From positions 5,714 through 69,713 of IMG/VR virus record IMGVR_UViG_3300045974_000067: 64,000 bases of DNA. The stretch is one strand, 5' to 3'. This document shows positions 6,451 through 58,635 of the stretch, piece after piece (position 1 is the stretch's first letter; every line of letters starts with the position of its first letter). This DNA comes from a virus. Below the pieces are notes generated by a model. It was not told where the DNA came from. It did no database searches and saw nothing but the letters and a program-made list of their open reading frames with translations. The translations under genes and the position numbers were made by a program.

Positions 6451-6466
6451 TCATTAATTTAACGGG
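6451..6466 (-). promoter_or_regulatory. Putative phage RNAP promoter, class A (minus strand CCCGTTAAATTAATGA)
   Basis: Exact intergenic repeat of the 15-mer also at 19828, 48756 and 53960; precedes the SSB-DNA polymerase operon. Confidence 0.75.
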
Positions 6467-6480
6467 ACTTTATAACCGTT

Positions 6481-6804
6481 TTATATTTTTGCTTCTTCTA
6501 TGTCGAGCGCCTTAAGTTCCTGCTCAAGTTTGATACGGTACTCCGCTCTATGCTTGTCTTTGGCTTCTTTGGACTCACTGTAAGGTTTGATCAACTCTGT
6601 AGCTACAATACGAAGATCTAATTCGTCTTTAGAATATGTTAAAGATTGATTATAAATGTCTCCTTTCAATAGTTTAAGGTCATGTATTTTATGAATGAAA
6701 TAAATAGGTATCAACAACTTATCGCTATAGCCAATATTCAAGATTATAGAAAATTTATCAGCATCGCATCCTTTATCATAACTCATACTATTCACCTTTT
6801 CCAA
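6481..6804 (-). CDS. Hypothetical protein
   Basis: ORF track. Confidence 0.6.
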   Translation of the reverse strand: MEKVNSMSYDKGCDADKFSIILNIGYSDKLLIPIYFIHKIHDLKLLKGDIYNQSLTYSKDELDLRIVATELIKPYSESKEAKDKHRAEYRIKLEQELKALDIEEAKI

Positions 6805-6988
6805 TGTATGTATCCCATTCTTCAGCAGTTATCCCTGTCATAATAAACTCACGATCATCTGCAGATAGATTAGGGAATGCTAATTGTGCCAGTAAGCCAT
6901 CTGTCCACTGTTTCAATTGCTCTTCAGTTATATTAATATCAAGTGTGTTCTCGATACCTGTAAAAGGACTAGTTCGTGTTATCTTCAT
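6788..6988 (-). CDS. Conserved-type small phage protein (RTSPFTG...QLAFPNLSADDREFIMTGITAEEWD)
   Basis: Motif pattern typical of a small phage protein family; function unknown. Confidence 0.65.
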   Translation of the reverse strand: MKITRTSPFTGIENTLDINITEEQLKQWTDGLLAQLAFPNLSADDREFIMTGITAEEWDTYIGKGE

Positions 6989-7430
6989 TATCTTTTCTTT
7001 CCCAATAAGCATTTGTTAATTTAATAGAGTCTAGTACATTCTCTGTTACAAACTCTTTAGGTATAAAATAAAGAGGACCACCAGCATCATTCCAACACAT
7101 TACAACTTGAACAAAATCTTGATCTTTGTCTGTCCAATCACATACATCAAAACTTTCAGGAACTTCATAGAGAGTAAGCCATCTATCATTTGCAACTGAA
7201 GCAATGCCTGTAGAAATCTCTCTTAAATCTTCCTTTGATTCTACTAATTGAATCTTACCACCGAATAAATCGTAGTATGGTTGATCTGCAAATTCACTTT
7301 TAAGTATTTCATCTACCATAGTACTATAGAAATCAAATGTCTTAGTAATCAAAGCAAATAACTTATTCGGCATTTGATTTGTATGAAATAGATTAAAAGT
7401 ATCTCTATAGGTTGGACCTAAATCTTTCAT
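6969..7430 (-). CDS. Hypothetical protein
   Basis: ORF track; AGGTG RBS. Confidence 0.65.
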   Translation of the reverse strand: MKDLGPTYRDTFNLFHTNQMPNKLFALITKTFDFYSTMVDEILKSEFADQPYYDLFGGKIQLVESKEDLREISTGIASVANDRWLTLYEVPESFDVCDWTDKDQDFVQVVMCWNDAGGPLYFIPKEFVTENVLDSIKLTNAYWERKDNEDNTN

Positions 7431-7616
7431 TCAATCACCTTTCTATAGACTTCTAATTTAGAATTACCTTGAAAAAGATTCTCAGGCTCTTCTAGAAAAT
7501 TATCTATATCAGCTCTTAGCATAGCTTCTGGATTAGAAAATCCTTTATAATATTCTTCTTTTACTTCATACTCTCTTTCAACTATTGCTACAATTTTAAA
7601 TCTCATTTAGAACTCC

Positions 7617-9878
7617 TCATGAAAAAGCATATTCAGAATCAAGTACTAATGTAATATCTAAAGTACCTAATTCTATTCCACTTATATCAGCCTCTATATC
7701 TTTAACAATACTAGATAAAGGGTCTGATTGATATAGTTCTACAAATGTTTCTCTAATCACTCTAAATAGTTTAGGCATGTCAGCTAGTAAACAACCAAAT
7801 GAATCATGCACAGTAGTAATAGGAAAATCAGACCTATTAACAGCTAACATTAAATGTGCTGCATCAAGACTGTGTATAGCATTAGGACTAGCACCTTGGC
7901 TTTGTTTATTTTTACTTGGTTTACTATTCTCAATAAAGCATATAGCTAATTGTATTGTATTAGTATAATATCCAGTACTATTCCTTTCACCAGCAGGAGG
8001 TCCATATTGAATCCAAATCTTTTTAATGACACCTTCTGTATAATGCTGTACTACTGGAAAGTTAGTAATAGGCACATGCCAAGATAGAAACTTATTATTC
8101 TCTTCAGCTTTCTTACCAGCATTCTCAAACACTGATAATAATTGCATTGGACGCTTTAGCGAGAACTTACAATCCTCATATACTAATTTACCTAAATAAG
8201 CACCCCAACGATGTTCCATTGAGAATAGCTGCTCTATGCCATGTTTCCTAGAGTCATCTATAATTTGCTGTCCACAACCAAAAGCTGTAGAGCCATATGA
8301 TAATGTCATTACATTTCGTTTTGATATTTTTCTTCTATCTCTGGACTCTTTAATTCTATGCCAATATACACATGAGCATATTGTCATTAATAAATCATTA
8401 TCATTTTTGAATTTAATAATATTCTTAATAAGTTCTTTTCTACGATCTGATTTTAGTGGTGCTTCAGAGATTTGATGTTTAAGATCAGCTAATGTATCTA
8501 TTAGATTTTCACAGTCTTTTAAAGTTTCTTTATCTAATTGATCAACATCAAAATCAATAGCTTTCCAGACATGTTCAGCCACATACAAATAAAGATCACC
8601 AGGAGAATCTAACGGTACAAGATTAACGTATGGTGCTGTTATTTCATCTCTAGTTAATGCTGCTAAGTGTTGTTGTCCATTAGTAGAACCATCAACATAG
8701 GCTTCTAAATGTGATTCATACTCATACGGATCAATTACACCTGAGATAATATGTTCAGCATTCTGATACTGCCAGTATCTAAACTTAGATAATTCAACGC
8801 ATGCTGCTAAGAATTGCCAAGGTTTGTCTGCCTTCATCCATCCCTGATTTACTTTAGGACTCTCAGCATAACTTATTAATATCTCTTCATTATCTAGGCT
8901 CCAAAGCACTCTATCAGATAACGGTATTTTATCAGTCTTAACTCCTTCAATATTAGAATTACCAGCCCAATTAGATGCAATAGAAATTAATAGCCAATCA
9001 AAGCCTTCTTTAGTAATTGGTTTAGAATCAGCTCTAAGTAGTAATCCCTTGGCTAGGTCTGAGCCTTGATTATGTAAGTATGCTGTAGCTGGATATACTC
9101 TTGCACGAAAGTCTAGTGTGTATAAGTGATAGAAAGTTTTACCAATAAATCTTTTAGCAATATCTCCTATAGCTTTTGCTTCACGTATCTTCGATTGTTT
9201 TGCTTCAGGATTGTGCATTTCCCATATATCAGCAAATGCATCAGTCTTATTCCTTAACGCCCAAGCATAAATAGGATAGATTTCTTCATTAATAGTCCAG
9301 CCAACTTTCTGTAATTTATTAAGTGTATTGAATACTAAAGGATGAGTCTCAGGAGTGAGCTCTTTAAGAACATCTCTATCAGCAGTCTTTACCATCATTA
9401 CGCCTGTTTCATGCCTAGTAGTAATCCAAGGTGCGTAAGGAAATAGTGATGGTAACTTTTCAGTCTTGTCTAAACTTAGAGAATCCCATAGTGTACTGAT
9501 CTTATCTTCATTAAGAACCTCTATGACATAGGTTGCATGTCCATTTCCAGCTCTACCAAGAAGTACTTTAATTAGGTCTATTTCTTCAAATGAGTATAGG
9601 AGAAATGCACCAGCTTTAGCAGCCAGCGCACTATCTCTTTTCATCTTATTTTTATTACGAATATTATGTCCAATAGCGCTTATAACTTCTGTCATTAATA
9701 CAGTCTTACGGGCCACACTACGACCTACCCTTGTGTATAAGTAGAGTACTGAGATAGTGTGGTCTACTAGGTCTTCTGGATCTAAATCCTTTAAAAACTT
9801 AACAGGATTTTGGTGTGAGATCTCAAACTTTAACCTATTGTTTATTGAAGCAACTAATTTTTGTTTCGTTGGCTCCAT
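7617..9878 (-). CDS. Single-subunit (T7/T3-type) DNA-directed RNA polymerase, stand-alone copy, 753 aa
   Basis: DFRARVY, KPWQFLAAC, motif A DGSTNGQQH, DLY..VA, motif B RK.SKRNVMTLSYG, PNAIHSLDAAH, motif C VHDSF. Confidence 0.95.
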   Translation of the reverse strand: MEPTKQKLVASINNRLKFEISHQNPVKFLKDLDPEDLVDHTISVLYLYTRVGRSVARKTVLMTEVISAIGHNIRNKNKMKRDSALAAKAGAFLLYSFEEIDLIKVLLGRAGNGHATYVIEVLNEDKISTLWDSLSLDKTEKLPSLFPYAPWITTRHETGVMMVKTADRDVLKELTPETHPLVFNTLNKLQKVGWTINEEIYPIYAWALRNKTDAFADIWEMHNPEAKQSKIREAKAIGDIAKRFIGKTFYHLYTLDFRARVYPATAYLHNQGSDLAKGLLLRADSKPITKEGFDWLLISIASNWAGNSNIEGVKTDKIPLSDRVLWSLDNEEILISYAESPKVNQGWMKADKPWQFLAACVELSKFRYWQYQNAEHIISGVIDPYEYESHLEAYVDGSTNGQQHLAALTRDEITAPYVNLVPLDSPGDLYLYVAEHVWKAIDFDVDQLDKETLKDCENLIDTLADLKHQISEAPLKSDRRKELIKNIIKFKNDNDLLMTICSCVYWHRIKESRDRRKISKRNVMTLSYGSTAFGCGQQIIDDSRKHGIEQLFSMEHRWGAYLGKLVYEDCKFSLKRPMQLLSVFENAGKKAEENNKFLSWHVPITNFPVVQHYTEGVIKKIWIQYGPPAGERNSTGYYTNTIQLAICFIENSKPSKNKQSQGASPNAIHSLDAAHLMLAVNRSDFPITTVHDSFGCLLADMPKLFRVIRETFVELYQSDPLSSIVKDIEADISGIELGTLDITLVLDSEYAFS

Positions 9879-9889
9879 AGATACCTCTA

Positions 9890-9994
9890 TTAACTAATTA
9901 ATAAAACAAACATTTTAATTAGAATACTATATAATATCAAACTTACAATACTTAGTAAAGGTATTGTTATCATAAACTTAAATAATTTTCTCAT
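9890..9994 (-). CDS. Small hydrophobic membrane peptide (34 aa)
   Basis: Manual translation MRKLFKFMITIPLLSIVSLILYSILIKMFVLLIS; ATGA overlap with upstream ORF. Confidence 0.45.
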   Translation of the reverse strand: MRKLFKFMITIPLLSIVSLILYSILIKMFVLLIS

Positions 9995-10110
9995 AAGAAG
10001 AAATACGGCATTACTTTAAATATTAAAAAGCCTAGAGATATATACAAAATGGTTGTTATAATTATACGCATAAAAAATAACCATAATGTAAATATCCAGC
10101 TTAGTAACAT
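9991..10110 (-). CDS. Small hydrophobic membrane peptide (39 aa)
   Basis: MLLSWIFTLWLFFMRIIITTILYISLGFLIFKVMPYFFL after GGAG RBS. Confidence 0.5.
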   Translation of the reverse strand: MLLSWIFTLWLFFMRIIITTILYISLGFLIFKVMPYFFL

Positions 10111-10148
10111 ATTAACTCCAAATGAAAAAATAACGCGATGAGAAATAC

Positions 10149-10184
10149 CCAACTACTAACACCCCGAAGGATATTAGTAGTTGG
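10149..10184 (-). terminator. Long RNA hairpin with C(UUCG)G loop (terminator or RNase III-type site)
   Basis: Minus strand CCAACUACUAAUAUCC-UUCG-GGGUGUUAGUAGUUGG, fully paired with G-U. Confidence 0.7.
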
Positions 10185-10190
10185 TATATT

Positions 10191-10412
10191 TTAAAACCGA
10201 TTTAAAAACTTTAGGATTTTTATTTTCAGGGGTACTTTTCGTACTACACCTGGGTTTTCATACTTAAATATTATTGCTTCACATCTATCTATTGATAAAG
10301 TACTTTCAATATGCAATGGAACAGTTTTGAAAGGGTCGAATCCTTCATAATATGTTACAACATGTACTATGCTTTCAACGACCCCTCTTCCTTTCTTTTT
10401 AGTTTTTAGCAT
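10191..10412 (-). CDS. Hypothetical protein
   Basis: ORF track. Confidence 0.55.
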   Translation of the reverse strand: MLKTKKKGRGVVESIVHVVTYYEGFDPFKTVPLHIESTLSIDRCEAIIFKYENPGVVRKVPLKIKILKFLNRF

Positions 10413-10866
10413 ATCTTACAGCAGAGTTATAGGCATCATTTAGATAAGTCTGAGCCTCCTTTGAAGTATCTACTACTGTAGTAGCCACAGTCTCATACAT
10501 TGCAGACGAGCGACCCTTAACAGCATCAATAACATTATCTTCTGGAACTAGTGCATTTGAGTATTTAGTTGAAATAACTTTGTAATTAGTTTGAAGTGTT
10601 GCCACTTGTGCATTCAAAACTACTACTTTAGCTTTTTCAATATTCAACGCAGAACGTTCTTCTGGTGTTTGAAGATTATAAATTGCATTAGTTCGAAGAC
10701 TACTTATAACGTGTCCTAGGTAAATTGGATCCTGGTAATAAAGAGTAATAGTTGCACTTGCAATCATTACCATTGTAAATGTCAAGCCAATCAACAAATA
10801 CTTATTAAGTGAATCAAAGAATTCGTTAATCTTAGACATTGTCGAGTTGTATGTAGTAAAGTTCAT
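10399..10866 (-). CDS. Membrane-anchored coiled-coil protein (spanin-like topology, unassigned)
   Basis: TM segment YLLIGLTFTMVMIASATITLYY followed by helical region; AAGGAG RBS before ATG 10866. Confidence 0.6.
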   Translation of the reverse strand: MNFTTYNSTMSKINEFFDSLNKYLLIGLTFTMVMIASATITLYYQDPIYLGHVISSLRTNAIYNLQTPEERSALNIEKAKVVVLNAQVATLQTNYKVISTKYSNALVPEDNVIDAVKGRSSAMYETVATTVVDTSKEAQTYLNDAYNSAVRYAKN

Positions 10867-10876
10867 TTGTAGCTCC

Positions 10877-10951
10877 TTAAAGTTTAAGTGTAATTGCAAT
10901 TAAAATAAGTACGATTGAGTATGTAACAATTTGACTAATTAACCTTAACAT
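10877..10951 (-). CDS. Small hydrophobic peptide (24 aa)
   Basis: MLRLISQIVTYSIVLILIAITLKL after strong GAAGGAG RBS, directly downstream of a class B motif. Confidence 0.5.
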   Translation of the reverse strand: MLRLISQIVTYSIVLILIAITLKL

Positions 10952-10971
10952 TAATATCTCCTTCTATATCA

Positions 10972-10992
10972 TATAAGATACCATTATTTGCG
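10972..10992 (-). promoter_or_regulatory. Putative phage RNAP promoter, class B (minus CGCAAATAATGGTATCTTATA)
   Basis: 21-mer repeated at 11613, 51962, 53880 (near-identical) and 53055, 58586 (degenerate); followed by RBS. Confidence 0.75.
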
Positions 10993-11125
10993 AATATTAG
11001 AAACTTTTAATAATTGATTAGTCTCATGTGTAATTTCTAAAATACTCTTAAATATTTTTAATTCGTAATTAAAATGTAGTGTAATAATCAATAAAATAAA
11101 AAGCAAAGCTATTTGTAACAAAATA

Positions 11126-11587
11126 TCACCCCTTATAAAAGATATGATTGCCAATAGTTTTAGTGTACTTCAGTTGATGCGCCCACTCTGGATCTACATA
11201 TACAGCATGAAAATGAGTACTACCATTTGTAATATCTTTTAATTTATTATCTAAAGCCTCACTAGCTATTTCTTTAGCCTTGTTAAACGAATCGTAATCA
11301 TCTATAGCATGCTTATAGAGTGTCCAAGAAAATTGATACGGTTGATAAACTATAGTACAAACAGAATTTCCAGTTCTTCGTACCCTATTCATAACTACGT
11401 TTGCGACTGCTTGCATACCTTTAAGACTTTCGCCCCTAGCTTCAAAATAGATATTTTTAGCTAAGCACTCAACTTCACTTTCTGGGAAAGTATTTTCAAT
11501 TGAAAGTGATTCAGTTTTTTCAATTAAGTCAGTTACAACAAATACAAGCATCATTGTAATACTTAGCAATACAATACTTTTAAACAT
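11126..11587 (-). CDS. SleB/CwlJ-like cell wall hydrolase (Hydrolase_2) with N-terminal signal/TM segment
   Basis: CLAKNIYFEARGES...AVANVVMNRV...QFSW...GSTHFHA.YV.P.W...IGNHIFY; start MFKS after AGGAG. Confidence 0.9.
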   Translation of the reverse strand: MFKSIVLLSITMMLVFVVTDLIEKTESLSIENTFPESEVECLAKNIYFEARGESLKGMQAVANVVMNRVRRTGNSVCTIVYQPYQFSWTLYKHAIDDYDSFNKAKEIASEALDNKLKDITNGSTHFHAVYVDPEWAHQLKYTKTIGNHIFYKG

Positions 11588-11612
11588 AATGGCTCCTATA
11601 TGTTGTCTTTCA

Positions 11613-11633
11613 TATAAGATACCCTTATTTGCG
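11613..11633 (-). promoter_or_regulatory. Putative phage RNAP promoter, class B (minus CGCAAATAAGGGTATCTTATA)
   Basis: Consensus copy, between a terminator and the hydrolase RBS. Confidence 0.8.
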
Positions 11634-11642
11634 CTCAATTTT

Positions 11643-11666
11643 TAGCCCCACCGTTAGGCAGGGCTA
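11643..11666 (-). terminator. Hairpin terminator at end of tail/holin operon
   Basis: Minus UAGCCCUGCC-UAAC-GGUGGGGCUA right after holin stop. Confidence 0.6.
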
Positions 11667-11670
11667 TAGC

Positions 11671-12180
11671 TTATTTAGAAGGTACAGATTGAGCAAGCAA
11701 TATGTCTTTACGTGCAGATCCACTTGTAGTACCAAACCAATAACTAACACAGGCAGTCCAGGCAGTACCTAGAGAGCCAAGCATTACAAGTAGTGGTGGT
11801 GAGTTAATTACACTATCATCTGCAAGCATCCAAATTAGTATTCCAAAGAATCCACCAGTGATTAAATAAGTAAGTATAGATGGTGTATTAGATTGTGTAA
11901 CTATTTGCATTTGACGTGCAGAATCTTTATCTTTGAATTCTAAGTCTGCGTATTTAAACTCACGTTCTTTTTCATGATCTTGATATTCTAATTCTAATTT
12001 CTTAATCTCAGCTAATTGATCAGGAGTGATCTTACCATCTTCAAATTGTTTACTAATAGTCGCAATAGTAGCATCTTTAATTCCAAATACACTACCTAAT
12101 GCTGCAACTGCTGCACCACCTAATGGGCCTAATAGTGCAGAGGCTAATGTTGGTGCTAGTGTTTTTAGGAAATCATTCAT
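11671..12180 (-). CDS. Putative holin (3TM gene-transfer-release holin type)
   Basis: LAPTLASALLGPLGGAA N-terminus, D.DSARQMQ, two TM helices, YWFGTTSGS.RKD C-terminus; GGAG RBS. Confidence 0.75.
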   Translation of the reverse strand: MNDFLKTLAPTLASALLGPLGGAAVAALGSVFGIKDATIATISKQFEDGKITPDQLAEIKKLELEYQDHEKEREFKYADLEFKDKDSARQMQIVTQSNTPSILTYLITGGFFGILIWMLADDSVINSPPLLVMLGSLGTAWTACVSYWFGTTSGSARKDILLAQSVPSK

Positions 12181-19823: not shown

Positions 19824-19849
19824 CTTATCATTAATTTAACGGTCTTGAG
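19824..19849 (-). promoter_or_regulatory. Putative phage RNAP promoter, class A
   Basis: CTTATCATTAATTTAACGGTCTTGAG, 25/26 identical to 48752-48777; followed by hairpin GGCUCCCCU/AGGGGAGCC. Confidence 0.8.
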
Positions 19850-37660: not shown

Positions 37661-39035
37661 TTATCCTATACCATAAAAGTAACGATTATCTTTAAAGTTC
37701 TCTTGAACTGTTGCAAGAATATCGCTCTTTGTTAGTATATCTTCCTTAGTAAGTATTTTACCACCTACTCTTGACCTTCCAGCCACAGGTATCAGGCCAA
37801 TATCAATTGCTTCATTTAAGTATTTATCATAAAGGTCTCTTGGGAAACCTCTTGCTAACATCTCATCTAAAGTCGACTTGATAGAGTCCTTTTCTACAGC
37901 ATTGGCATAGATGATCCTTAAAGCTTTTCGTGCATCTAGCATATCAGCTGCATTTGTAAAGAATGCGTCATGTATCGTCGAAGTTTGTATATTACTTTTC
38001 TTACCCCATAAATGAAATTGTTTAACAAGAGTGGCATCATTAGAGTGATTACCATTAACACCAAAAGCTGTACGTGCTCTTGTAGCATCAGCAATGTCAT
38101 TTATTTTACCAGGTTTATTTCTAAACTCTTCCCACCAATTAGGTTCAGTTCTTTGTGGTATTTGAAGTATGTTATTTACCCAATTACCATTAGCATCTTT
38201 ATAAGCTAATTTTTCTTCAAAGTTTTGAGTATAATTTTGTTCTAATATTTTGCCATCAAAATTAACCCATGGAATATTAGACCAATTCTTATCTAATTTA
38301 TTAGGATAGCCAACTTCGAAACCTTTAGTAATATCCTCAGAAAACAAAGAATAATTACCTATCTTAAATCCTGTTCTACGTCTTGTTGGTGTTTTAACAC
38401 CTGTAATTAATTCAGATGTAAAACTACCAGGCACATAACCAGGAATACGATTTAAAAGTTTCTCACGCAGCGCTTCATCTTTAATACCCATGATATTATT
38501 AAGCCATGTAGGTAATTTAACACCTTTCTTATAGCTACTTAATAAACTCTGCTTTAATATTGATTGAATATCAAAAGCACTTTGTGAAGGTTTAGAATTT
38601 ATTAAAAAGTCTTGTGCTAATCTACCAAAATACTTAGTAAAATCTTTTAAAATAGGAGTAGATGACTCTAAATTTTCGCTCATTATATTAGCTATTAATT
38701 TAAAGTCTTCAGGTGTTACTATTTTATTATAAGCTCTACTAAGTTTATCTACATAGTCTTTAGTCTTACTATCTAGGAAATATAATTGATCTATTAACTC
38801 AGCACCAGGATCTAATCCTTTGTTAAAGACGTCTTTAATATCTTGTCTAAGTGCTTTTAATTCATTATAAGTCTCAGGATCAAAACTTTCATAGCGTGCC
38901 ATACGAGCGCTAATCTCACTTAATACAGCATCTCGCTCAGCAGCTTTAACAACAAGTGTTTCAGATTCTTTTCCTAATACCTTAGATAGTTTAGCTTCAA
39001 CACTGAAGATACCAGTGCGTTCACCTGCACCATAC
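37661..39035 (-). CDS. MuF-RNA polymerase fusion, exon 2 (YGAG..., NGNHSNDA, motif C IHDAF)
   Basis: Continues motif B after intron removal; carries second catalytic Asp. Confidence 0.9.
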
Positions 39036-39329
39036 CGATTTGTTAAACAGAATTCGTTAGATTCTGTCAATTTACTACAAAGCAAATATAGTTCATTTAA
39101 GTTTCCTATATTTGCTTTGTATAAATTCTGCATATTCCTATGCAGTCCAGACTATATCATCATCCCTAAGGATGTCGGGCGCTTCCACTGGACTCCCAGT
39201 GTACTCCTTTCGGATAGTCGTTGCACCTTACTGTTTTCACAGTCTTGGCTCAGGATTGACCGTTCTGGTTTTTCCCTGAGTTCACCCGATTGTCATTTAG
39301 ACATTACTGTCTAAAGCCTCTAATAAATA
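39036..39329 (-). ncRNA. Group I self-splicing intron, ORF-less, 294 nt
   Basis: P1: exon CCUU pairs with IGS GAGG (U-G at splice site); P7 AACGACUAU (39214-39222); S element GAUGAUAUAGUCUGG; P9 hairpins; terminal G; removal restores KQQNMVTL-YGAG in frame. Boundary could shift by 1 nt (Phe instead of Leu). Confidence 0.9.
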
Positions 39330-42300
39330 AAGGTCACCATGTTCTGCTGTTTGGCAGCTTTACGTAAATCTTTCTCAGTAAGTCCTAACTTTTGATTTAA
39401 TTTAATAAATCTAGGATCATTAAAAGTAGCATTAGCAATTTCATCGTATAGACGCTTCTTTTGGTCAGTAGGTACTACATTACTTAGGCTAGCTAACTGC
39501 TTATTTTTAGTAGTTAAAGCAATAATCTGTGCGCCACTACTAGAAGCATCTTGCTCAAGAGCAATATTAATACGATAGTTAGCAAGTCTACCCAGGCTTG
39601 CGGCACTGTAATCCCCTCCTAAGAATTCGTCTATTTTAGCTGTTTCTAATGCAAGTCTTAATAACTTTCCTTGTTCTTCTCCATCAATTTGTGCAAGAAG
39701 CTTATTCTCCAAGATAAATCGTATATCATTAGGTTTAGCTCTACGAATAGCATTACCAATAGCAATAAGATCTTTACGATGATCCATTGCTATTTGTTGT
39801 CTACCTAGAATAGATAATGAATTATGGCTACCTTCTAAAGCATCAGATAGTCCACCTATAAATCCACCTATTTGGTCTTGTAGATTATAAAAACCTAATT
39901 CACTAAAAGGCTTAGCTTGTGCAGTATTAAGAAATGGTCTGAATGTTTCACCTGATTGTGGCCCTATAAAGCCACGCTCGTATATACGGCCACGATGATC
40001 AATAAAAGGAGTATTACTAAATGACATATCTTTTTCACGTAGCCAGGACATAGCCTTAAGACGTTCATATGCATCTCCTCTTTCAACCATGTATTGTCTG
40101 TATATATTTAGATCATTATAATATTGTGCTTTACCTTTATCATCTTGAAAAGTAATTAATTTATTTATAAAGTCATGAAATTCAGGATCTACTTTATATT
40201 GTGCTTGTGAAGCCCAATTAAGAGCATCAGTCATATTCTTGTCGATAAGTTCTACAGGTAAGTCATTAAAGCTAGAAGTTGAAGTAATAGGTATACGAGT
40301 GTCTGTAAGTCCAAATATACCATCATCTATAAAATATGTCTTATAGCCTTCTTTAACTAATAATCTATTCTTATCTGTAGTAACACCTACACGTAAGCCT
40401 ACTTCTACTTTCCGTGTGAGTCTTGCATAATTTTGTATTCTAGGATCAGTTATCCTAAGATTAACACTAAAAGTATCATAGTAAGGGCCGAAGTATTGTC
40501 CACTCATACGACTCTTCATACGTCTTTTCTGTACACCAAAAGTCTCTAGCTCATAGAAACCTTTGTCTTTAGCATCATCTAACAACTTGACACCTAAAGT
40601 ATACCATTCATTCCTACTACCTCGATAGTTAGCAAGATTATATAAGTCACGTCCTAATGCTACAGCAAGTTGATCTCTATCAGGACTATCTGCTAATGAG
40701 AGTCTCTTAGCAAACTTTAAATAAAAATCTTTTAGATTCTGGTCTGTGAGTCTTATCTTTAATTTAACGGGTATCTTGTAATCTAAAATATTACGAAGCT
40801 GATTAGCTATTTTAGGTAAAGTTTTATCTTCCCATTTGTTTACAGCTTTAATATTAGCAATAAATGTATCATGTAGTTCTTGTAATTGTACAGGTCCAAG
40901 AACAGGATCAATATAATTAGCTTGTTTTAATTTAAATAGTAGATTAGCATCTTTACGTAACTGTGTTTCCATATAATCTGAAACATTCATTACATCAAAC
41001 TTAATCTGACCATTTAAAACAGCTTTTAAATTAGTCCATGCTTCATCATTTTCTCTAAATCTTCCAAATGTTATTCTTAAGTTATCTGCTATAGCAGCTC
41101 TTTCATTAATACTCATTGTATCTGCTAAGTCATTTACAAACTTAGTAATAAATTCTTTATCTTTTTGTTTAAGAACTATACTCTCATTAACTAATCTAAG
41201 ATTATTATTAAGTACACTAGGATTAGGTGCAAACATCCTAGTATCTTCATAACGACTAGTAATAGGATTGAACTTTAAGTTAGCTTCAGTAGGTGGTGTA
41301 TTTAGCACACGCGTCTTAGCAGCTTTCTTAGTACCTATTAAATTACCACGATAGTTTGTTAATGATAAAGTACCATCAAGTTCTTGTGTTTGCAATAAGT
41401 AGTATTGTTTAAGAGCAGCAGTCATTTCTGCATCACCAATAATTTCATCTGGTCTAGCAGCACCTAACTTAAGTGTATCTAACTTATCTTTAGCAAAAGC
41501 AAATCTACGAGTATCACCAGGTAAACTACCAAAGTCACTAGTAGTCATTTGATTAAGTTGTTTAATTCCTACATTAGCACCTGATGGTGTTATAAATTTA
41601 TCTAGTTGTAATTGACCACTTTGAAATTTCTGTAATCTATTAAGATCGCCAATATGCTTTATTTGTACTTCTTGTGGTTGTCTAAGTAGCCAGTCATTAT
41701 AGCTTTCTTTTAATGGTGATTGTCCATCATAAAAGGCTATTTCTTTATCAGTAAGTCCTGCAAGATTCCTTTTGCGTATCTGAGCAATACCTTCATTAGT
41801 ACCTAATTGATCATAGGACTTAGTAATAGGTATAGTTGTAGAACGGCAATACCAATGAGCAGGTGGCAAGTGTGCAGTATCTCCGACAGGATAAATATGT
41901 CCATCTCTGCTTGCACATAATGGTGTTGTACGAGAGTCTAATACTGCTACATATTGATAGCCATTTAAAATTTTTTCATTAGCTTTATAAACTTGATGAT
42001 CTGCTTGAGCATATACTGAAGTCATAGATGTTACAGTTAAACCATTAGCTTGATTTTTAGTAATATTAAAAGTACTCGATACAGTTTTAGCAATAGAAGT
42101 CTCATTGAGACCATCTGCAATACCTTTACGTATAATAGCTTCAATACGTATTCTTTCATTCTTGCCTATACCTACCCAACCTTCTTGCAATACTACATTA
42201 TTATATAAAGGTTGCTTAAGTACTACATTCTCTGCAATGCTTCTTGGAGGTTGCTTAGTACGCCAAATATTACCAACAGCTTTATCAATATTGTTAGTTG

Positions 42301-42571
42301 TGAAAGACACTTGATCTTTAAATAAATCTAATAAAGATCTCGAATGCACATTATACGTATTACTAATTGTCTTTTCTATTTCAGTATTTAACTTAACTTT
42401 AAATTGATCAAAAGTATCACCTTGTAGCTTAGATGAACGGATTAATCCATCTACTCTAACAGCATGACCATCAATAATTAACTCTAACTTGCCTTTTGTA
42501 TTGTCAGTATAGAGTCTAATCATTGCTGCTCTATCTACAGCTTTATCATAAATTTGTGTGTTGGCATTCAT
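39330..42571 (-). CDS. MuF (SPP1 gp7-like head morphogenesis)-T7-type RNA polymerase fusion, exon 1; spliced product 1538 aa
   Basis: N-terminal MuF motifs YVAVLDSRTTPLCASRDG..Y, PPAHWYCRST, SYNDWLLRQ; polymerase motifs IDHRGRIY, EQDASSSGAQ, LYDEIA, RKAAKQQNMVT. Confidence 0.9.
40753..40771 (-). promoter_or_regulatory. Class A promoter-like motif inside the MuF-RNAP gene
   Basis: TTATCTTTAATTTAACGGG, one mismatch to TTATCATTAATTTAACGGG. Confidence 0.5.
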
Positions 42572-42618
42572 AGCAACCTCTGACGGTCATTAGTTTAACT
42601 TAATAGAGACCGAATCTA

Positions 42619-48751: not shown

Positions 48752-48777
48752 CTTATCATTAATTTAACGGGCTTGAG
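48752..48777 (-). promoter_or_regulatory. Putative phage RNAP promoter, class A (late operon)
   Basis: CTTATCATTAATTTAACGGGCTTGAG, immediately after strong terminator, heading the packaging/structural block. Confidence 0.8.
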
Positions 48778-49203: not shown

Positions 49204-49204
49204 A

Positions 49205-51961: not shown

Positions 51962-51982
51962 TATAAGATACTCTTATTTGCG
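51962..51982 (-). promoter_or_regulatory. Putative phage RNAP promoter, class B
   Basis: TATAAGATACTCTTATTTGCG, 1 mismatch to the 11613 copy. Confidence 0.8.
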
Positions 51983-52113
51983 CTATTGTCCAAGCACACG
52001 AACACAGTAAAAGAAACTGTTAGTTTGTCTACATTCAGTCCAAAGAGAATACTCAAAATAAACTACTAACCCTATTGCAAATAAAATAATAGTTACAGGT
52101 AGTATATAGTCTT

Positions 52114-52392
52114 TCATTTAACAACTTTCAAATGAGCCTCTTTGACAAGCTTAACAGAGTCAGTTGCTTCAATGAAGTATGTAGAACCAGTACGCATATT
52201 AACAATTAATGGTTTTCCAGCATTAAGACTATCTGATACAGTCTTTGAATTAAGGAGAAAATTAGCAGCTTTAACTCGCATATAAATATCACCATCATTA
52301 CGTCGAGTAAATATTTGCATTGTTTGTAAATCGCTTGCATTAATTCTTCCATCATCTACATCTTTACTGGTTTCAATTATTAATATGCTCAT
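52114..52392 (-). CDS. Hypothetical protein
   Basis: ORF track; AAGGA RBS. Confidence 0.65.
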   Translation of the reverse strand: MSILIIETSKDVDDGRINASDLQTMQIFTRRNDGDIYMRVKAANFLLNSKTVSDSLNAGKPLIVNMRTGSTYFIEATDSVKLVKEAHLKVVK

Positions 52393-52410
52393 GATTATTT
52401 ATCCTTTAAA

Positions 52411-52605
52411 TTACTTATCCCAGTTAATGTCAGGTTTAATATTAGGTATATTACGAACTTCCATAAACTCTTTTATAGCTTCTACAAGAGGTGCAGCATT
52501 ATGCTTATGTGACAATACTAATTTTCTCTTACGTGTAGTTAAGAATGCAGCAAAGTCATAGATTGCACCTAATGCTATTTGATAATCCTCTACTTTAGCT
52601 CTCAT
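52411..52605 (-). CDS. Hypothetical protein
   Basis: ORF track. Confidence 0.6.
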   Translation of the reverse strand: MRAKVEDYQIALGAIYDFAAFLTTRKRKLVLSHKHNAAPLVEAIKEFMEVRNIPNIKPDINWDK

Positions 52606-52892
52606 ACTTTTACTGCCTTAATGTGTCTAGTTTGAATTTCATGTTGAAAACTTTCCCAATCATTTCTATCTTCATAACTCCCAACAAGTAGTAAACGAAT
52701 ACCTGTTACACCTTTTAATTGGTATGGATAGTTTACAATTATTGTTTGTGCTCTTGATAATTCTCGAGATCGCATATATTCATAAGCTTCTTCATAATTT
52801 CCGCCTAATATGTAATTCATTTCTTCCTCATTTGAGTAATTAAATATACTTTTTAAAGTATACTTATTGCAATTTAATTTAATTAAATACAC
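52602..52892 (-). CDS. Hypothetical protein (start uncertain, possibly 52821)
   Basis: ORF track; internal GAGG RBS before MNYIL. Confidence 0.55.
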   Translation of the reverse strand: MYLIKLNCNKYTLKSIFNYSNEEEMNYILGGNYEEAYEYMRSRELSRAQTIIVNYPYQLKGVTGIRLLLVGSYEDRNDWESFQHEIQTRHIKAVKV

Positions 52893-52916
52893 TCCTCTTG
52901 AATGTACTTAATTAAT

Positions 52917-53053
52917 AACCCTACTCATAGAGTAGGGCTAGTAATCCGTGCCTCTTTTGAAAGTCTAAGCAATTGTGCGCACAATCGGTTAGGCTGTTTA
53001 AGGCCATCACGGTAGCCTTATTGGGTGGGCGGGTAGTTTACTAGCGCGAACGC
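52917..53053 (-). ncRNA. Candidate small pseudoknotted RNA with own promoter and 3' hairpin
   Basis: Starts at predicted +1 G of class B motif; GCG-UUCG-CGC hairpin; closing stem GCUAGUAA/UUACUAGC; loop CCGUG complementary to CACGG; 3' hairpin AGCCCUACUC/GAGUAGGGUU. Confidence 0.6.
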
Positions 53054-53054
53054 T

Positions 53055-53075
53055 TATAAGATACCCCGTTTAAAA
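53055..53075 (-). promoter_or_regulatory. Class B promoter, degenerate copy
   Basis: TATAAGATACCC core intact, distal half divergent. Confidence 0.55.
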
Positions 53076-53273
53076 TAAGCTTCTTAGGCTTTATTCCCAA
53101 AATCGTGTACGTTTATATAGATACTATATAGGCCGAGGAGTTAGCCATACCTATGGGCAGAAACGTACAAACCCTGATGAACCTCTAATAGTCTTTGATA
53201 ATAGAATTCGGTAATAGTATAGTAGAGCCATGCTCACTATAATAGAGGACAGGAGCATAGCTCGACTGTTCTA

Positions 53274-53834
53274 TTAAGCGGCCTTTGGTTCTGCAGCTGC
53301 CTTGTTTGCAGCACGTTCAGCTTGATACTTGGCAAGTGCTTCTGCCGCCTTCGGATTAACAGCACGCTTCTCGATACCAGCATTATAAGCAGCAAGAATA
53401 GCTTCTTGATTCTTAATAATCCATTTAGCTGCATTGTCATCGGCAAGCTTTGCCAGTGCTGCTTGAGTGGCTGCGGTCTTTTCTTCTTCAGTCATACGCT
53501 TAACACTAGGCCAACGGAATGAATCCATAATGGCTTGATGATTATCTTGCACAAACTTAAAGTTAATATCAGTGGATGCAACAATAGCGTCCAGAGCCTT
53601 TTGCAACTTCTTACGATCAGCTTTAGTAACACGAGCAACTACGCCAGCTTCAAATGCCTTGCAAATCTCATCCTCGTTCTCATACAAGAATTGTGCAAGG
53701 TTTGCATCACCACCAGAAATCTTACGCAAGGCAGCTTCAATTTGCGGCTTACGAAGATAGTCCCTAGCTTCAGCAGCAGTACGGAACACGGAACCATCCG
53801 GGGTAATAAAGCCAGATTGAATAACATTTGCCAT
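53274..53834 (-). CDS. Probably highly expressed conserved phage protein, function unknown
   Basis: F.TPDG.VF.T..EA.DY N-terminus; biased codons; preceded by both class A and class B motifs. Confidence 0.75.
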   Translation of the reverse strand: MANVIQSGFITPDGSVFRTAAEARDYLRKPQIEAALRKISGGDANLAQFLYENEDEICKAFEAGVVARVTKADRKKLQKALDAIVASTDINFKFVQDNHQAIMDSFRWPSVKRMTEEEKTAATQAALAKLADDNAAKWIIKNQEAILAAYNAGIEKRAVNPKAAEALAKYQAERAANKAAAEPKAA

Positions 53835-53879
53835 TTAAAATATCCTCAATAAAATGAAGGAATACATCATTGTATTCCT

Positions 53880-53900
53880 TATAAGATACCCTTATTTACG
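53880..53900 (-). promoter_or_regulatory. Putative phage RNAP promoter, class B
   Basis: TATAAGATACCCTTATTTACG; predicted +1 G (53878) opens hairpin GGAAUACA-AUGA-UGUAUUCC. Confidence 0.8.
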
Positions 53901-53957
53901 CAAAGGGATTTCGCAAGGTCTTCTTGGCTGACCTTGATAGCCTACTAACCAACGTGA

Positions 53958-53975
53958 TATCATTAATTTAACGGG
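53958..53975 (-). promoter_or_regulatory. Putative phage RNAP promoter, class A
   Basis: TATCATTAATTTAACGGG exact copy. Confidence 0.75.
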
Positions 53976-54089
53976 CTAGCCGACCTGCCAGGTTGCCATA
54001 TAGCGCAACGAAACAGGCCGACTGACACGCCACCCTAGACCAACCTACGGCCTCACAGCAGCCAAACGGCGACTACTGTGGCTAATCAA

Positions 54090-54479
54090 CTAAGCAAATA
54101 AAACATCCATTTTATGAGCTTGAGCAGATTGTAGCAGTTTTATTAGTAACACAAGTCGATCTTCTACGTACTCAGGTGATCTTCCAAACTCAATGAAATT
54201 ACCACTAGTTACAGTATTCTTTTGCAATTTTTTAGACAAAGATATTTTGTTCAGTATTGTAATAGCTCTCCTCAATACTATATCTACTTTTAGACAATCC
54301 CAACTACCGTATAATTCGTTGGCTTCTTTATGGCATCCTAACATTTCTAAAAAGTCTTTGGCATTTACATTTGACATATTTAATGAATAGAAGCCATCTG
54401 CAGGTACTGTTTCAAATTCACCTGGAGCGTATTCCTCTATTACTGTTGGTGCACCTACTATACTAAATGTTACAGACAT
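54090..54479 (-). CDS. Hypothetical protein
   Basis: LNMSNVNA...L..LG pattern; ORF track. Confidence 0.65.
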   Translation of the reverse strand: MSVTFSIVGAPTVIEEYAPGEFETVPADGFYSLNMSNVNAKDFLEMLGCHKEANELYGSWDCLKVDIVLRRAITILNKISLSKKLQKNTVTSGNFIEFGRSPEYVEDRLVLLIKLLQSAQAHKMDVLFA

Positions 54480-56239: not shown

Positions 56240-57017
56240 TATCTTCATCCAGGTAGCTATTGAGTTGTTCAAAGACATCAGCAAGGAATTCACCAAAGTC
56301 TACAGGTAATGCATCGTCATACTTTTCAGTATTTAGTAGATTTTTAAGATACATGGTATCAATACCCATCAATTGTTCTTTGAGATCCTTATATGTCTTG
56401 ATTTCAAGGCGAACAATGCTGAGTGCAATATGCATAATTGTACTGCCAGGAAGTTTGTAGCCACGATCACGGTACTTATTTGTTCTATATAATGCACATA
56501 TTGGATAGTGACTTTTTCCAAGGTATGTAAGTCGTTTCTTGGCAAGGTCTTGAAAGAATCTTTCACCAAATACAAACTCGTCATTTTGGAAGTCATATAA
56601 TCCTTGAGTAATTGTATAATCGAATGTGTCTAGAATATACTCTGGTTCTCCACAAAACTTAGTGATAAGTTGTACTGTCCAGATTTTACGACCATGCTTA
56701 CTTTGACGCTTAAAAGTTAAAGCATTAATAGACTTAAATGGTGGCTCTGATGGAAACCATCTAGCTAAAAATGTTGTTGCTGCAGGAATATCATTAACAT
56801 TCTTAATATAAAAATCTAGATCATTAATACGATTGTCTGTAAAGATACTATTAATAGCACCACCAGCAAGCATTAGACCTAGACTTTGTAGATCATGTAG
56901 AATACTACCTAGGTCTTCTTTCTCACCAAAGAGTTCTTTAATAAAGCCTCTCTTTTCAGGCCCAAAGAAAGTTTCTACTGTATCAATTACTTTTTGCTTC
57001 TCAATCAAATTATTCAT
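56223..57017 (-). CDS. Nucleotidyltransferase-superfamily protein (poly(A) polymerase/CCA-enzyme head-like)
   Basis: LAGGAI......INDLDFY and FDYTI motifs; R..KY..RGY. Confidence 0.75.
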   Translation of the reverse strand: MNNLIEKQKVIDTVETFFGPEKRGFIKELFGEKEDLGSILHDLQSLGLMLAGGAINSIFTDNRINDLDFYIKNVNDIPAATTFLARWFPSEPPFKSINALTFKRQSKHGRKIWTVQLITKFCGEPEYILDTFDYTITQGLYDFQNDEFVFGERFFQDLAKKRLTYLGKSHYPICALYRTNKYRDRGYKLPGSTIMHIALSIVRLEIKTYKDLKEQLMGIDTMYLKNLLNTEKYDDALPVDFGEFLADVFEQLNSYLDEDNEEVS

Positions 57018-57261
57018 CTATCTCATCCTCATCAAAATTGGAATAATCATCATCTGAATCACCATCTATCTTATAGGTCTTTACTAGTTCTTTTTCTGCA
57101 TGCTCACGAAGAATACTGTTCATACGATTTTCTGCATAGTGCTGTAAATTATGTTTTCTTAAGTTATAAAAGTCTACTTCAATTTCATTTAGTTTAGAGA
57201 GTATAGAAGCAGTACTTTCATTATCTCTGATGAGTCTACGTATTGCTTTGAAATTATTCAT
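57010..57261 (-). CDS. Hypothetical protein, acidic tail
   Basis: ORF track. Confidence 0.6.
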   Translation of the reverse strand: MNNFKAIRRLIRDNESTASILSKLNEIEVDFYNLRKHNLQHYAENRMNSILREHAEKELVKTYKIDGDSDDDYSNFDEDEIDE

Positions 57262-57478
57262 CTAAATTAATCTCCAATTGTTTTTCACGAAATTTAATAT
57301 ACTCTTCAAGTTGCTTTAAAACCCTTGCTTTGCTACCTTTAAAACCAAACTCTTCTTTTACAATACTATACGTAGATCTGCCATGACGCTGCATACCTGC
57401 TATTTCTAATTTCAATGCACCTTTTAATACATACAACCTAGCATGCCTTATATTTTCCTCACCTTCAATAACTGTCAT
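57254..57478 (-). CDS. Hypothetical conserved-type phage protein
   Basis: ALKLEI.GM...GRS.YSIVK.EFG.KGSK. Confidence 0.7.
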   Translation of the reverse strand: MTVIEGEENIRHARLYVLKGALKLEIAGMQRHGRSTYSIVKEEFGFKGSKARVLKQLEEYIKFREKQLEINLDE

Positions 57479-57479
57479 A

Positions 57480-58406
57480 TTACATACTCCTGAAATCTAT
57501 AGGATCACGCCAACCTACAAATCTAGGGAATCTCGGCATCTCTTTCACACCGTGGGTAAAGTGTCTAAACTTTAAAATCTTACCATAGTAGTCTTCATGA
57601 TTCTGCCACACGTGCAATCTTTCATCATGCTTCATACATCCTGGCGCGATCTCTAATAGTTGACCTTTATAGTCAGCTAAAATTTTACCCATAGTACCAG
57701 CTGATACCATTCCAGATTTCATTGTAGAACGCTTAGCCATACCTAGATTACTTCTGACGTCTAGATTCATATTCTCTAATTGTTCACCAAAGCCTACAAC
57801 TACAGCTTCGTCATCTTGAAATCTTTTAAGCTTGTAAATTAGACCTTCTTTAAATGTTCCTCTACCATGCTTATATCTACCAAAAGGAGCTCGCATGATA
57901 AGACCTTCATAGCCTTGCTTTAGTACAACTTCTTCATAGAACAATAACTCGTCTAGATCTCTACATAATTGATGCTCTACAATTGTTACATTTGAAAATG
58001 GATATTCTTTTTTATAGTCATCTACTAAGAATCGAGCTGCTTCAAAACGCTCATAAAAAGGTTTATCTGCTAGACTTAAATCAGCACAATCAAATACTCT
58101 AAACTGAAAATCTGGAGTTGGTTTATCTTCAGACATTACAAATGATTGTGTACGATTATATACATCAAAGTCTGATTCGTTACCTACAATAATCTCACCG
58201 TCTAACTCAGCAAATCCACTGAATAGATTCTGTACATATTTTGAAGGTAGATCTATATAACTCCTACTCTTGCATGCATTATCTTTTACTATGCAACGAA
58301 TACCATCAAGCTTAACAGAACACAGTAATGGAAATCTTAGATTTTTAAAGTAATCTGGATCCCTAAGCGGATCTGTATTTGGGCAAAGCATCGGCTTGAA
58401 TTGCAT
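57480..58406 (-). CDS. ATP-dependent DNA ligase
   Basis: KLDGIR (motif I), LDGEI, F.VFD, EGLIMR, KLK, PRFP. Confidence 0.93.
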   Translation of the reverse strand: MQFKPMLCPNTDPLRDPDYFKNLRFPLLCSVKLDGIRCIVKDNACKSRSYIDLPSKYVQNLFSGFAELDGEIIVGNESDFDVYNRTQSFVMSEDKPTPDFQFRVFDCADLSLADKPFYERFEAARFLVDDYKKEYPFSNVTIVEHQLCRDLDELLFYEEVVLKQGYEGLIMRAPFGRYKHGRGTFKEGLIYKLKRFQDDEAVVVGFGEQLENMNLDVRSNLGMAKRSTMKSGMVSAGTMGKILADYKGQLLEIAPGCMKHDERLHVWQNHEDYYGKILKFRHFTHGVKEMPRFPRFVGWRDPIDFRSM

Positions 58407-58635
58407 CTTTAGCTTCCTCCTCATTCAAAAACCAATCTTGACAATTGAATTCATTAATATAAAAGTTTTCATAAAGGCCATATTTAACTGGCTGTTTAAA
58501 AGCTAATTGATCAATCTTCCAAGTACAACATTTACCTGTTAAACGAACGCTAACAGGATTACCTCTGTAATCTGTTCGTTTACCATATAAGATACCACTT
58601 CCTGCGAGTTCCAATAATTGGTCTTTAGATATCAT
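58363..58635 (-). CDS. Hypothetical protein
   Basis: R.TGK..TWK....F..PVKYGL pattern. Confidence 0.6.
   Translation of the reverse strand: MISKDQLLELAGSGILYGKRTDYRGNPVSVRLTGKCCTWKIDQLAFKQPVKYGLYENFYINEFNCQDWFLNEEEAKDAIQADALPKYRSA
58586..58606 (-). promoter_or_regulatory. Class B-like motif within coding sequence, upstream of ligase
   Basis: TATAAGATACCACTTCCTGCG keeps core and terminal TGCG spacing. Confidence 0.45.

Follow-up and report, generated by a model that had tools for sequence, protein, structure and literature searches.

Two families of promoter-like motifs in a siphovirus genome encoding a free and a MuF-fused RNA polymerase of the T7 fold

The analysed window is a 64,000-nt stretch of virus DNA, bases 5714-69713 of the IMG/VR record IMGVR_UViG_3300045974_000067 (a single virus record of 69,713 bp, rated complete by CheckV), which encodes two single-subunit RNA polymerases (RNAPs) and carries two families of repeated motifs, referred to here as class A and class B. 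The GC content of the window is 35.8%, and 86 of its 93 open reading frames (ORFs) lie on the minus strand; transcription would run almost entirely from one strand. The gene list behind this count, and behind all statements on intergenic and coding positions, is a rough call made in this analysis. Searches against Pfam and PHROGs revealed a siphovirus-type layout with a tape measure. Read as transcribed, towards lower coordinates, the layout begins with pieces of ribonucleotide reductase accompanied by ORFs for homing endonucleases, and continues with genes for an ATP-dependent ligase and a DHH phosphoesterase and with a series of small genes without known function. Next come the terminase genes (small, then large), a SET-domain gene, the portal gene, the gene for a MuF head protein with a fused polymerase, and those for scaffold and capsid. 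The tail genes, among them those for a tape measure of 1853 aa and a tail-fibre/Tal-like protein of 1695 aa, precede genes for three large proteins of unknown function and for a cell-wall hydrolase. Small genes follow, then a 753-aa T7-type RNAP and, finally, a gp2.5-like single-stranded DNA-binding protein (SSB) and a family A DNA polymerase. Relatives were collected by scanning IMG/VR for both motifs and then searching the matching records, which yielded five whole genomes (G001-G005), and ten further near-complete genomes were obtained from long contigs encoding a relative of the fusion, giving 15 uncultured relatives in all.

Exactly two PF00940 loci are present in the whole genome, and a Sigma70_r2 search of the whole genome gave no match to a sigma factor. 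Both of the phage-encoded single-subunit polymerases claimed in an earlier sequence-only reading of this DNA were found, and both are of the T7 fold. The free RNAP (753 aa; 7617..9878, minus strand; PF00940, E-value 9e-66) matches the T7 RNAP chain 1aro_P with an E-value of 2.8e-46, with both catalytic aspartate motifs (DGS..G.QH and HDSFG) aligned. As to the second enzyme, the same reading had named a MuF-RNAP; the fusion does exist, but its gene is interrupted by a group I intron, which spreads the product over two ORFs. Exon 1 (39329..42571, minus strand) carries a MuF domain (PF04233, E-value 2e-14) and the N-terminal two thirds of the polymerase, including motif A, and motif B as far as ..KQQNMVTF. 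It is followed by the intron (39035..39328, minus strand; 294 nt, no ORF; Rfam RF00028, 95.8 bits, E-value 2e-23, at 39128-39339) and by exon 2 (37661..39034, minus strand; PF00940, E-value 1e-5), which supplies the rest of motif B (YGAGERT..), motif C (..TIHDAFF..) and the C terminus. Taken as they stand, ORF 39320-42571 shows the MuF domain and a weak polymerase match, and ORF 37661-39133 has a polymerase match above the Pfam cut-off. A tblastn comparison with the uninterrupted homologues of G001, G003 and the phage DSS3_VP1 placed the junction between residue 1081 of the first ORF and residue 34 of the second, that is, within motif B (..KQQNMVTF|YGAGERT.., matching ..K....MTLAYGS.. of T7 RNAP); the last base of exon 1 is U 39329 and that of the intron is G 39035. 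A perfect 14-bp hairpin lies past the Rfam-matched core, within the 3' extension of the intron. At the intron site EBPR siphovirus 1 has an HNH endonuclease gene, and G001, G003 and DSS3_VP1 are free of any insertion.

Motifs A (EQDASSSGAQ), B (K..MVTF|YGAG) and C (TIHDAFF) of the fusion are invariant in 30 aligned homologues. A sequence search of both MuF-RNAP ORFs against PDB chains returned chance-level matches only. The AlphaFold model of the polymerase part of the G001 homologue (mean predicted local distance difference test score 78.5, predicted template-modelling score 0.76) matches T7 RNAP with a Foldseek E-value of 1.5e-16 and a Z-score of 30.4 (542 residues aligned, root-mean-square deviation 3.5 Å), as compared with Z-scores of 19.6 for the N4 mini-vRNAP and 14.8 for N4 RNAPII. 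Judged by its catalytic motifs and modelled fold, the MuF-fused protein qualifies as a T7-family single-subunit RNAP. The fusion contains two cysteines, both in the MuF part, and none in the ~980 residues of the polymerase part; the free RNAP contains eight, and the tape measure (1853 aa), capsid and scaffold none. Database searches gave 448 homologues of the fusion at an E-value of 1e-5 or lower, mostly of ~1540 aa and with both Pfam domains, whose public labels go no further than 'head morphogenesis protein' or 'minor capsid protein'. One of these homologues carries the label 'Flavobacterium sp.', which is probably a binning label.

Homing elements seem to be plentiful in this genome. Another group I intron signal (62561-62686, minus strand) scores 38.5 bits, under the Rfam cut-off of 50, with an E-value of 1.7e-7; it adjoins a LAGLIDADG ORF in the ribonucleotide reductase region, and its 3' part resembles that of the polymerase intron. 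Homing-type ORFs are located at 62612-63238, 61136-61669, 4450-5154 and 1488-2051; three of them, of the HNH type, lie away from the 62561-62686 signal, and the one at 4450-5154 is just upstream of the DNA polymerase gene. In G003 (66519-69457) and G015 (49461-52490) the match to the free RNAP gene is split in two, with stops or a gap separating the pieces, which may reflect another insertion, in the other polymerase gene.

The two motif classes provide the most repeated 11- and 12-mers of the window. All 11 accepted copies are on the coding strand, and 10 of the 11 are intergenic, in the 7.2% of the window so classed (binomial P ~4e-11); the 5.7 kb of the genome outside the window contain no further good copies. 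Class A reads CCGTTAAATTAATGA on the minus strand and is present in four exact copies and one copy with a single mismatch. At up to two mismatches the window has five matches, all on the minus strand, against a mean of 0.31 in 100 shuffled sequences, none of which reached five. The exact copies claimed at 6451, 19828, 48756 and 53960 and the 1-mismatch copy claimed at 40756 were all recovered and withstood this comparison. A weaker copy had also been claimed at 42587..42601 (minus strand), between the portal and MuF-RNAP genes. It was dropped: with three mismatches it is at chance level (the whole genome has seven further matches at three mismatches beyond the five good ones, three of them on the wrong strand), the weight matrix misses it, and no relative has a counterpart.

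Class A had been placed before the SSB/DNA polymerase, packaging and fibre genes, and copies were indeed found ahead of the SSB module, the packaging/structural module and the genes past the tail-fibre gene. The exact copy at 6451..6465 (minus strand) precedes the gp2.5-like SSB gene (5857-6399; SSB call by PHROGs, E-value 2e-7), whose ATG is 52 nt downstream and which is the first gene of a module with DUF3310, HNH and DNA polymerase A genes. The exact copy at 19828..19842 (minus strand) is located 141 nt upstream of a 197-aa gene (p197; 19094-19687), past the 1695-aa tail-fibre/Tal-like gene; the leader predicted from it starts with a strong hairpin (-22.8 kcal/mol, z -3.1), and G002 has class A at the equivalent place, ahead of its p197 homologue. 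The third exact copy, at 48756..48770 (minus strand), stands at the head of the packaging/structural module, with a long hairpin and a T run before it (~48829-48890) and a ~380-nt AT-rich, repeat-bearing leader after it. The fourth, at 53960..53974 (minus strand), is 60 nt upstream of the class B copy at 53880, and both face a 186-aa gene (p186). The 1-mismatch copy at 40756..40770 (minus strand; matrix score 29.8 out of 33.7) is the only one in a coding region: it lies inside MuF-RNAP exon 1, at codons ~601-605, at the boundary between the MuF and polymerase parts of the fusion, and may serve as an internal promoter for the polymerase part, scaffold and capsid genes.

The leader behind the 48756 copy contains, at 48486-48735, an AT-rich array of dispersed and tandem repeats with units of 12-13, 24-26 and 53 nt (e.g., TTATAGCTAGCT); lying between this copy and the first gene of the packaging module, the array may be an origin or a packaging signal. 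A third repeated word of the window, ACTTTTAATATTA, occurs four times (42061, 27039, 26524 and 25979, minus strand), always within coding regions.

Class B had been described as a single 21-mer; it is, rather, bipartite, consisting of CGCAAA, seven variable bases and ATCTTATATG. Four copies match the 21-mer with at most one mismatch (10972, 11613, 51962 and 53880; none in 100 shuffles), and the copies at 53055 and 58586, earlier listed as degenerate, retain the exact 11-mer core GGTATCTTATA and lack most of the upstream half; the claimed set thus stands as four full and two core-only copies. The copy at 10972..10992 (minus strand, one mismatch) heads the small genes leading into the 753-aa RNAP gene, and the exact copy at 11613..11633 (minus strand) precedes the gene for the cell-wall hydrolase (endolysin-like), whose ATG is 26 nt downstream. 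Two further copies with one mismatch are located 30 nt upstream of a 109-aa gene (51962..51982, minus strand) and 46 nt upstream of the 186-aa gene (53880..53900, minus strand). Of the core-only copies, 53055..53075 (minus strand; GGGGTATCTTATA) lacks CGCAAA and is followed by a 163-nt GC-rich leader before a 96-aa gene, and 58586..58606 (minus strand), with the partial upstream element CGCAGG, precedes the ATP-dependent DNA ligase gene, the 162-nt leader between them carrying a strong hairpin. Class B is thus found where it had been reported, before accessory genes and the operon into the stand-alone RNAP, and these places are kept in relatives. The two small genes behind the 51962 copy (51276-51932, minus strand; 109 and 104 aa) are distant paralogues, with 25% identity by tblastn.

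Alignment with the relatives gave the class B consensus (T)G-CGCAAA, seven variable bases, ATCTTATA-T-G-(A/G). The reported continuation TATA-N-G is present in all six window copies and in all 13 aligned class B sequences, and its conserved G may well be the +1 position. In two class B copies a 5' hairpin had been said to start exactly at this G. Significant hairpins indeed follow two of the six copies; pairing starts with the G itself at 53880 (z -2.7), but at 58586 (z -3.3) the stem begins 2 nt past it. A small stem at 53055 is no stronger than in shuffled sequences. For class A, the core shared across relatives is (a)CCCGTTAAATTAA, of 13 bp, which continues with TGATA or CCC; the window has TGATA only, and CCC is frequent in relatives and in EBPR siphovirus 1. 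Since the two flavours share CCCGTTAAATTAA and do not sort by gene module (G001, G003, G005 and EBPR siphovirus 1), the start site is probably at or near the end of the shared core.

Several noncoding features were observed around the class B-driven genes. Long noncoding stretches at 50609-51089, 52893-53273 and 53975-54089 appear, by eye, GC-rich and structured in an otherwise AT-rich genome, and one such stretch sits directly behind the class B core at 53055. An Rfam search of 50100-54200 at an E-value of 0.1 gave no match for them; they may be phage non-coding RNAs. A 16-bp hairpin at 10149-10184 (minus strand) separates the small genes behind class B from that of the free RNAP, and at the equivalent place DSS3_VP1 has a GC-rich hairpin with a T run (42344-42435) just before its RNAP gene. 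The 10149-10184 hairpin may limit the expression of the polymerase, as an attenuator or as a processing site.

Both classes are present in all five genomes G001-G005, at a GC content of 39-47% as against 36% in the window, with 13 class A and 16 class B weight-matrix matches, all on the coding strand and none on the other. The free RNAPs of G001, G003, G004 and G005 are 51-71% identical to that of the window; G002 has no free RNAP gene. Among the ten further genomes, CCGTTAAATTAA at up to one mismatch was found 46 times on the gene strand and three times on the other (three matches of the reversed-pattern control), and CGCAAA-N7-ATCTTATATG gave 15 matches in nine of the ten, all on the gene strand (control, none). 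The number of IMG/VR contigs encoding a relative of the fusion is 354, and in each of the ten near-complete genomes the fusion is accompanied by a free RNAP of 53-65% identity.

The map positions of the motifs are conserved as well. Class A stands directly before the SSB gene in six of six genomes (the window, G001, G003, G004, G005 and DSS3_VP1), before the p186 homologue in all five genomes that have it, and before the packaging module in six (the window, G001, G003, G005, EBPR siphovirus 1 and DSS3_VP1). In G001, G003 and EBPR siphovirus 1 it is also located just after the fusion gene, before scaffold and capsid; this place is empty in the window, where the 1-mismatch copy at 40756 may stand in for the missing one. 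Class B precedes the hydrolase/small-gene/free-RNAP region in every mapped genome with this region (G001, G003, G004, G005 and DSS3_VP1), and in nine of the ten further genomes it is found 1.2-6.5 kb before the gene for the free RNAP. In seven of these ten, class A follows 0.66-1.3 kb downstream of the free RNAP gene (G007, G008, G009, G011, G013, G014 and G015); the distance is 3.7 kb in G010, and no such copy was found by pattern in G006 and G012. The conserved order is class B, early genes, free RNA polymerase, class A and replication genes. The spacers before the SSB and p186 genes align poorly, so that only the motifs stand out, some rows being without them. In DSS3_VP1, where the free RNAP is 34% and the fusion ~30% identical, a class A-like family ATAGGnnnCGTTAAAG (14 gene-strand copies) has CGTTAAA in common with class A, and a class B-like family GCATCTATAATGA (three copies, two of which head the operon reaching its RNAP gene) has ATCT.TA.TGA in common with class B. 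Variants of class A (AAA, AAC, GAA) and of class B (CGC, CGG, CGT) coexist in single genomes, and no enzyme-specific co-variation could be read from them.

Both families are very probably promoters of the phage's own polymerases, because they are strand-specific, intergenic, head gene blocks and stay fixed amid unalignable spacers, and because the genome encodes two polymerases of a promoter-specific type and no sigma factor. What typifies T7-type promoters, a repeated conserved block on the coding strand upstream of genes and a cognate T7-family polymerase in the genome, is found here. Neither class aligns with the T7 promoter (PMC13029058) apart from the ..TATA end of class B, and membership among T7-type promoters is therefore by kind and not by sequence family. 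The claim that neither class is sigma70-like was borne out in the window genome and G001-G005: a TTGACA-like hexamer (at least four of six bases) at 16-18 nt was found at four of 20 class B sites, three of them in G003, and at four of 18 class A sites, in line with the rate of 12.9% at random positions. The invariant class B bases (CGCAAA and ATCT) occupy the position of the non-conserved sigma70 spacer, and sigma70-like sites are not enriched in the window (91 vs 77 +/- 8 in one half and 76 vs 86 +/- 9 in the other). Early promoters of the N4 virion RNAP need a conserved DNA hairpin with a short stem and a 3-nt loop. No conserved inverted repeat was found in the class A or class B alignments, the sole possible class B stem having three or four A-T/G-T pairs.

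We propose the following relay. The MuF-fused polymerase would be produced late, enter the capsid by way of its MuF part and be injected along with the DNA, and it would then read the early class B promoters, which precede small unknown genes, the ligase block, the cell-wall hydrolase and the operon ending in the 753-aa RNAP. The 753-aa enzyme produced from these transcripts would in turn read the middle/late class A promoters and so drive the genes for T7-like replication, those for packaging, head and tail, and those located past the tail fibre. The phage may thereby transcribe its genome without need for the host enzyme. This assignment, derived from gene order and timing logic, is in our view the best explanation and a reasonably probable one. 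Class B precedes the free RNAP gene, and class A is never the only class directly ahead of it, which implies that class B would be usable at time zero, as fits a capsid-delivered polymerase. The division of genes between the classes (small unknown, ligase and accessory genes behind B; replication and virion genes behind A) resembles the classic split into early and middle/late. The MuF fusion, its location among head genes and the cysteine-free polymerase part fit a packaged, injected protein; MuF-fused domains are regarded in PMC5512222 as likely delivered effectors. With about even odds, we would extend this to a joint claim for a large clade of mostly uncultured freshwater and marine siphoviruses (at least 354 IMG/VR contigs and the cultured roseophages DSS3_VP1 and DSS3_PM1): a host-independent two-polymerase programme with two mutually orthogonal polymerase/promoter pairs, CGCAAA-N7-ATCTTATATG being read by the injected cysteine-free enzyme tethered to the portal-associated MuF protein, and the 13-bp CCCGTTAAATTAA, for every middle and late gene, by the 753-aa enzyme, which would constitute a third independent virion-polymerase relay.

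Several points weigh against this assignment of class B to the MuF-fused and class A to the free polymerase. Packaging of the fusion into the virion is predicted from its PF04233 domain, the place of the gene between portal and scaffold and the cysteine-free polymerase part, and the main text of the DSS3_VP1 paper contains no virion proteomics; the 1538-aa fusion product presupposes splicing as predicted from the ORFs. No RNA run holding the phage was found, the four runs with this DNA being pond and wetland DNA metagenomes. The motif of Kolga (AAGaCACyCTTACAGA), which has a free-type RNAP only and a MuF protein without a polymerase, lines up loosely with either class and does not discriminate. 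Other points tell for the opposite pairing, which we regard as unlikely, in which the MuF polymerase reads class A and the 753-aa enzyme reads class B, the RNAP gene being first reached by read-through from class A and then amplifying its own expression. It is class B whose end, ..CTTATA-N-G, has the more T7-like shape (PMC13029058, Table 2), and it also heads the cell-wall hydrolase gene, whose endolysin-like function is usually late; the MuF-RNAP gene itself lies within a class A-driven operon. In many relatives (G001, G003, G004, G006, G009, G010, G011 and G012) class A occurs ~1 kb upstream of the class B/RNAP region, and read-through from it could also start RNAP synthesis, which keeps the opposite pairing alive. 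Under that pairing, however, replication, capsid and tail genes would be transcribed from time zero, whereas small genes of the host-takeover type and the second polymerase would wait, and we know of no phage relay ordered in this way. Phages of the T7 group place the promoters of their free polymerase right after the polymerase gene and before the replication module; class A occupies just this place, downstream of the free RNAP and before a T7-like replication module, which favours its pairing with the free enzyme.

Three other explanations were considered. The host RNA polymerase could read class B as an unusual -10-centred promoter, the 753-aa enzyme reading class A and the MuF polymerase having other starts or another task. 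Class B does lie at the map position of the T7 host promoters, its DSS3_VP1 form contains a perfect TATAAT, the window copy at 51962 has TGGACA 16 nt before TATCTT, and three of the four G003 copies (6147, 8323 and 8493, in transcription sense) have TTGACA, TTAACA or TTGACG, matching TTGACA in five or six of six bases, exactly 17 nt before TATATG, a score reached by only 2% of random positions. The TATAAT and the G003 hexamers also count against the preferred assignment and leave room for the host polymerase, and the three G003 copies may be dual promoters that the host enzyme is also able to use. We nevertheless consider host reading improbable: the -35-like hexamer is missing from the other 16 of the 20 sites, as at random, invariant bases fall within the would-be sigma70 spacer, sites of sigma70 type are not enriched, class B is identical across phages of 36-47% GC, and a capsid-linked polymerase that is catalytically intact by its motifs would be left without a conserved target. 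Still less probable is that the 753-aa polymerase reads both classes, differing in strength or timing like T7 classes II and III, with the MuF polymerase pulling the DNA in or priming. T-G-A follows both classes in the window (..TTAATGA and ..TATATGA), and one copy of each lies 60 nt apart before the same gene, but the two cores have no alignable common recognition block, they stay separate and invariant across the clade and are also kept apart, in a diverged form, in DSS3_VP1, and the start-up of the RNAP gene behind class B would stay unexplained. That the motifs are instead regulator operators, RNA processing sites, or packaging or replication signals is a view to which we give very little credence; the class A copy at 48756 adjoins the AT-rich repeat array, a possible origin or pac region, but copies lie 20-160 nt before start codons and always on the coding strand, heading gene blocks and in some cases following terminator-like hairpins, they lack operator-type inverted repeats, their number of four to six per class and genome is typical of phage polymerase promoters, and the two polymerases of the genome need promoters.

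Apart from these subjects, the SET-domain (methyltransferase-type) gene between the large terminase and the portal encodes 123 aa (44820-45191, minus strand; Pfam E-value 4e-10). Strong Shine-Dalgarno sequences before the genes argue against a Bacteroidota host, and a near-identity search of window positions 7000-12000 against the phage collection gave no match.

If the proposed relay holds, it would add a T7-fold, MuF-tethered enzyme to the polymerases injected by phages (N4, crAss-like phages, P23-45 and jumbo phages), in a clade that is common in lakes, wetlands and the sea. The cultured relative DSS3_VP1, which grows on Ruegeria pomeroyi, makes the pairing of polymerases and signals directly testable. 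With exact promoter cores at hand, the two small polymerases and their promoters could be tried as independent expression switches, the conservation data showing which promoter bases matter.

The closest parallel in promoter architecture is the T7 group (Autographiviridae), with which the genome shares contiguous ~13-23 bp conserved blocks on the coding strand that head gene blocks, an AT-rich end of class B followed by a conserved G, a reading enzyme of the T7 fold, and a first phage promoter right after the RNAP gene and before the module of gp2.5-like SSB and family A DNA polymerase. Unlike in that group, the two classes are unrelated to each other and are not strength variants, class B consists of two parts around a variable gap of 7 nt, the phage is of the siphovirus type and has a tape measure, and no host-type early promoters were recognised; the sequences themselves are unrelated to the T7 promoter (PMC13029058).

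In phage N4 the virion RNAP gp50 hands over to the polymerase RNAPII (PMC4496689). The relay proposed here is similar in that a capsid-delivered T7-family polymerase would serve a few early promoters, with a second T7-family polymerase among the resulting products. It differs in that the delivered polymerase is fused to MuF, whereas that of N4 is embedded in a ~3500-aa protein, and in that its modelled fold is nearer to T7 RNAP (Z 30.4) than to the N4 mini-vRNAP (Z 19.6). The second polymerase is one chain here and two in N4, and late genes apparently depend on a phage promoter and not on the host enzyme. The motifs also lack the hairpin that N4 early promoters need. N4-like virion polymerases are said in PMC5512222 to occur only in N4-like phages. 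A polymerase fused to a structural protein reportedly transcribes the first genes in Thermus phage P23-45, which has a tape-measure-fused virion RNAP and a non-virion RNAP, and in the crAss-like phage phi14:2 with its virion RNAP. Common to these phages and the present one are a virion structural protein fused to a polymerase and early products that include a second phage polymerase; their enzymes, however, are of the two-barrel type, in contrast to the T7 fold here, and the fusion partner here is a portal-associated MuF protein.

The nearest relatives are the Naomviridae DSS3_VP1 and DSS3_PM1, EBPR siphovirus 1 and ~350 IMG/VR contigs, which share the gene order, a MuF-polymerase fusion (30-57% identical), a free RNAP (34-71% identical) and A- and B-like motifs at matching map positions. 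DSS3_VP1 differs in its diverged motifs (CGTTAAAG.. and CATCTATAATGA) and in a fusion gene (product gp108) without an intron. The main text of the DSS3_VP1 paper is silent on RNA polymerases, and its one use of the word 'promoter' concerns an unrelated intron. Full-text literature searches found no published MuF-polymerase fusion and none of these promoters. The combination of a MuF-tethered and a compact T7-fold polymerase with two unrelated promoter classes in a siphovirus clade was likewise not found in these searches. In kind, the system belongs with the known promoters of phage polymerases and with the virion-polymerase relays of N4, P23-45 and the crAss-like phages.

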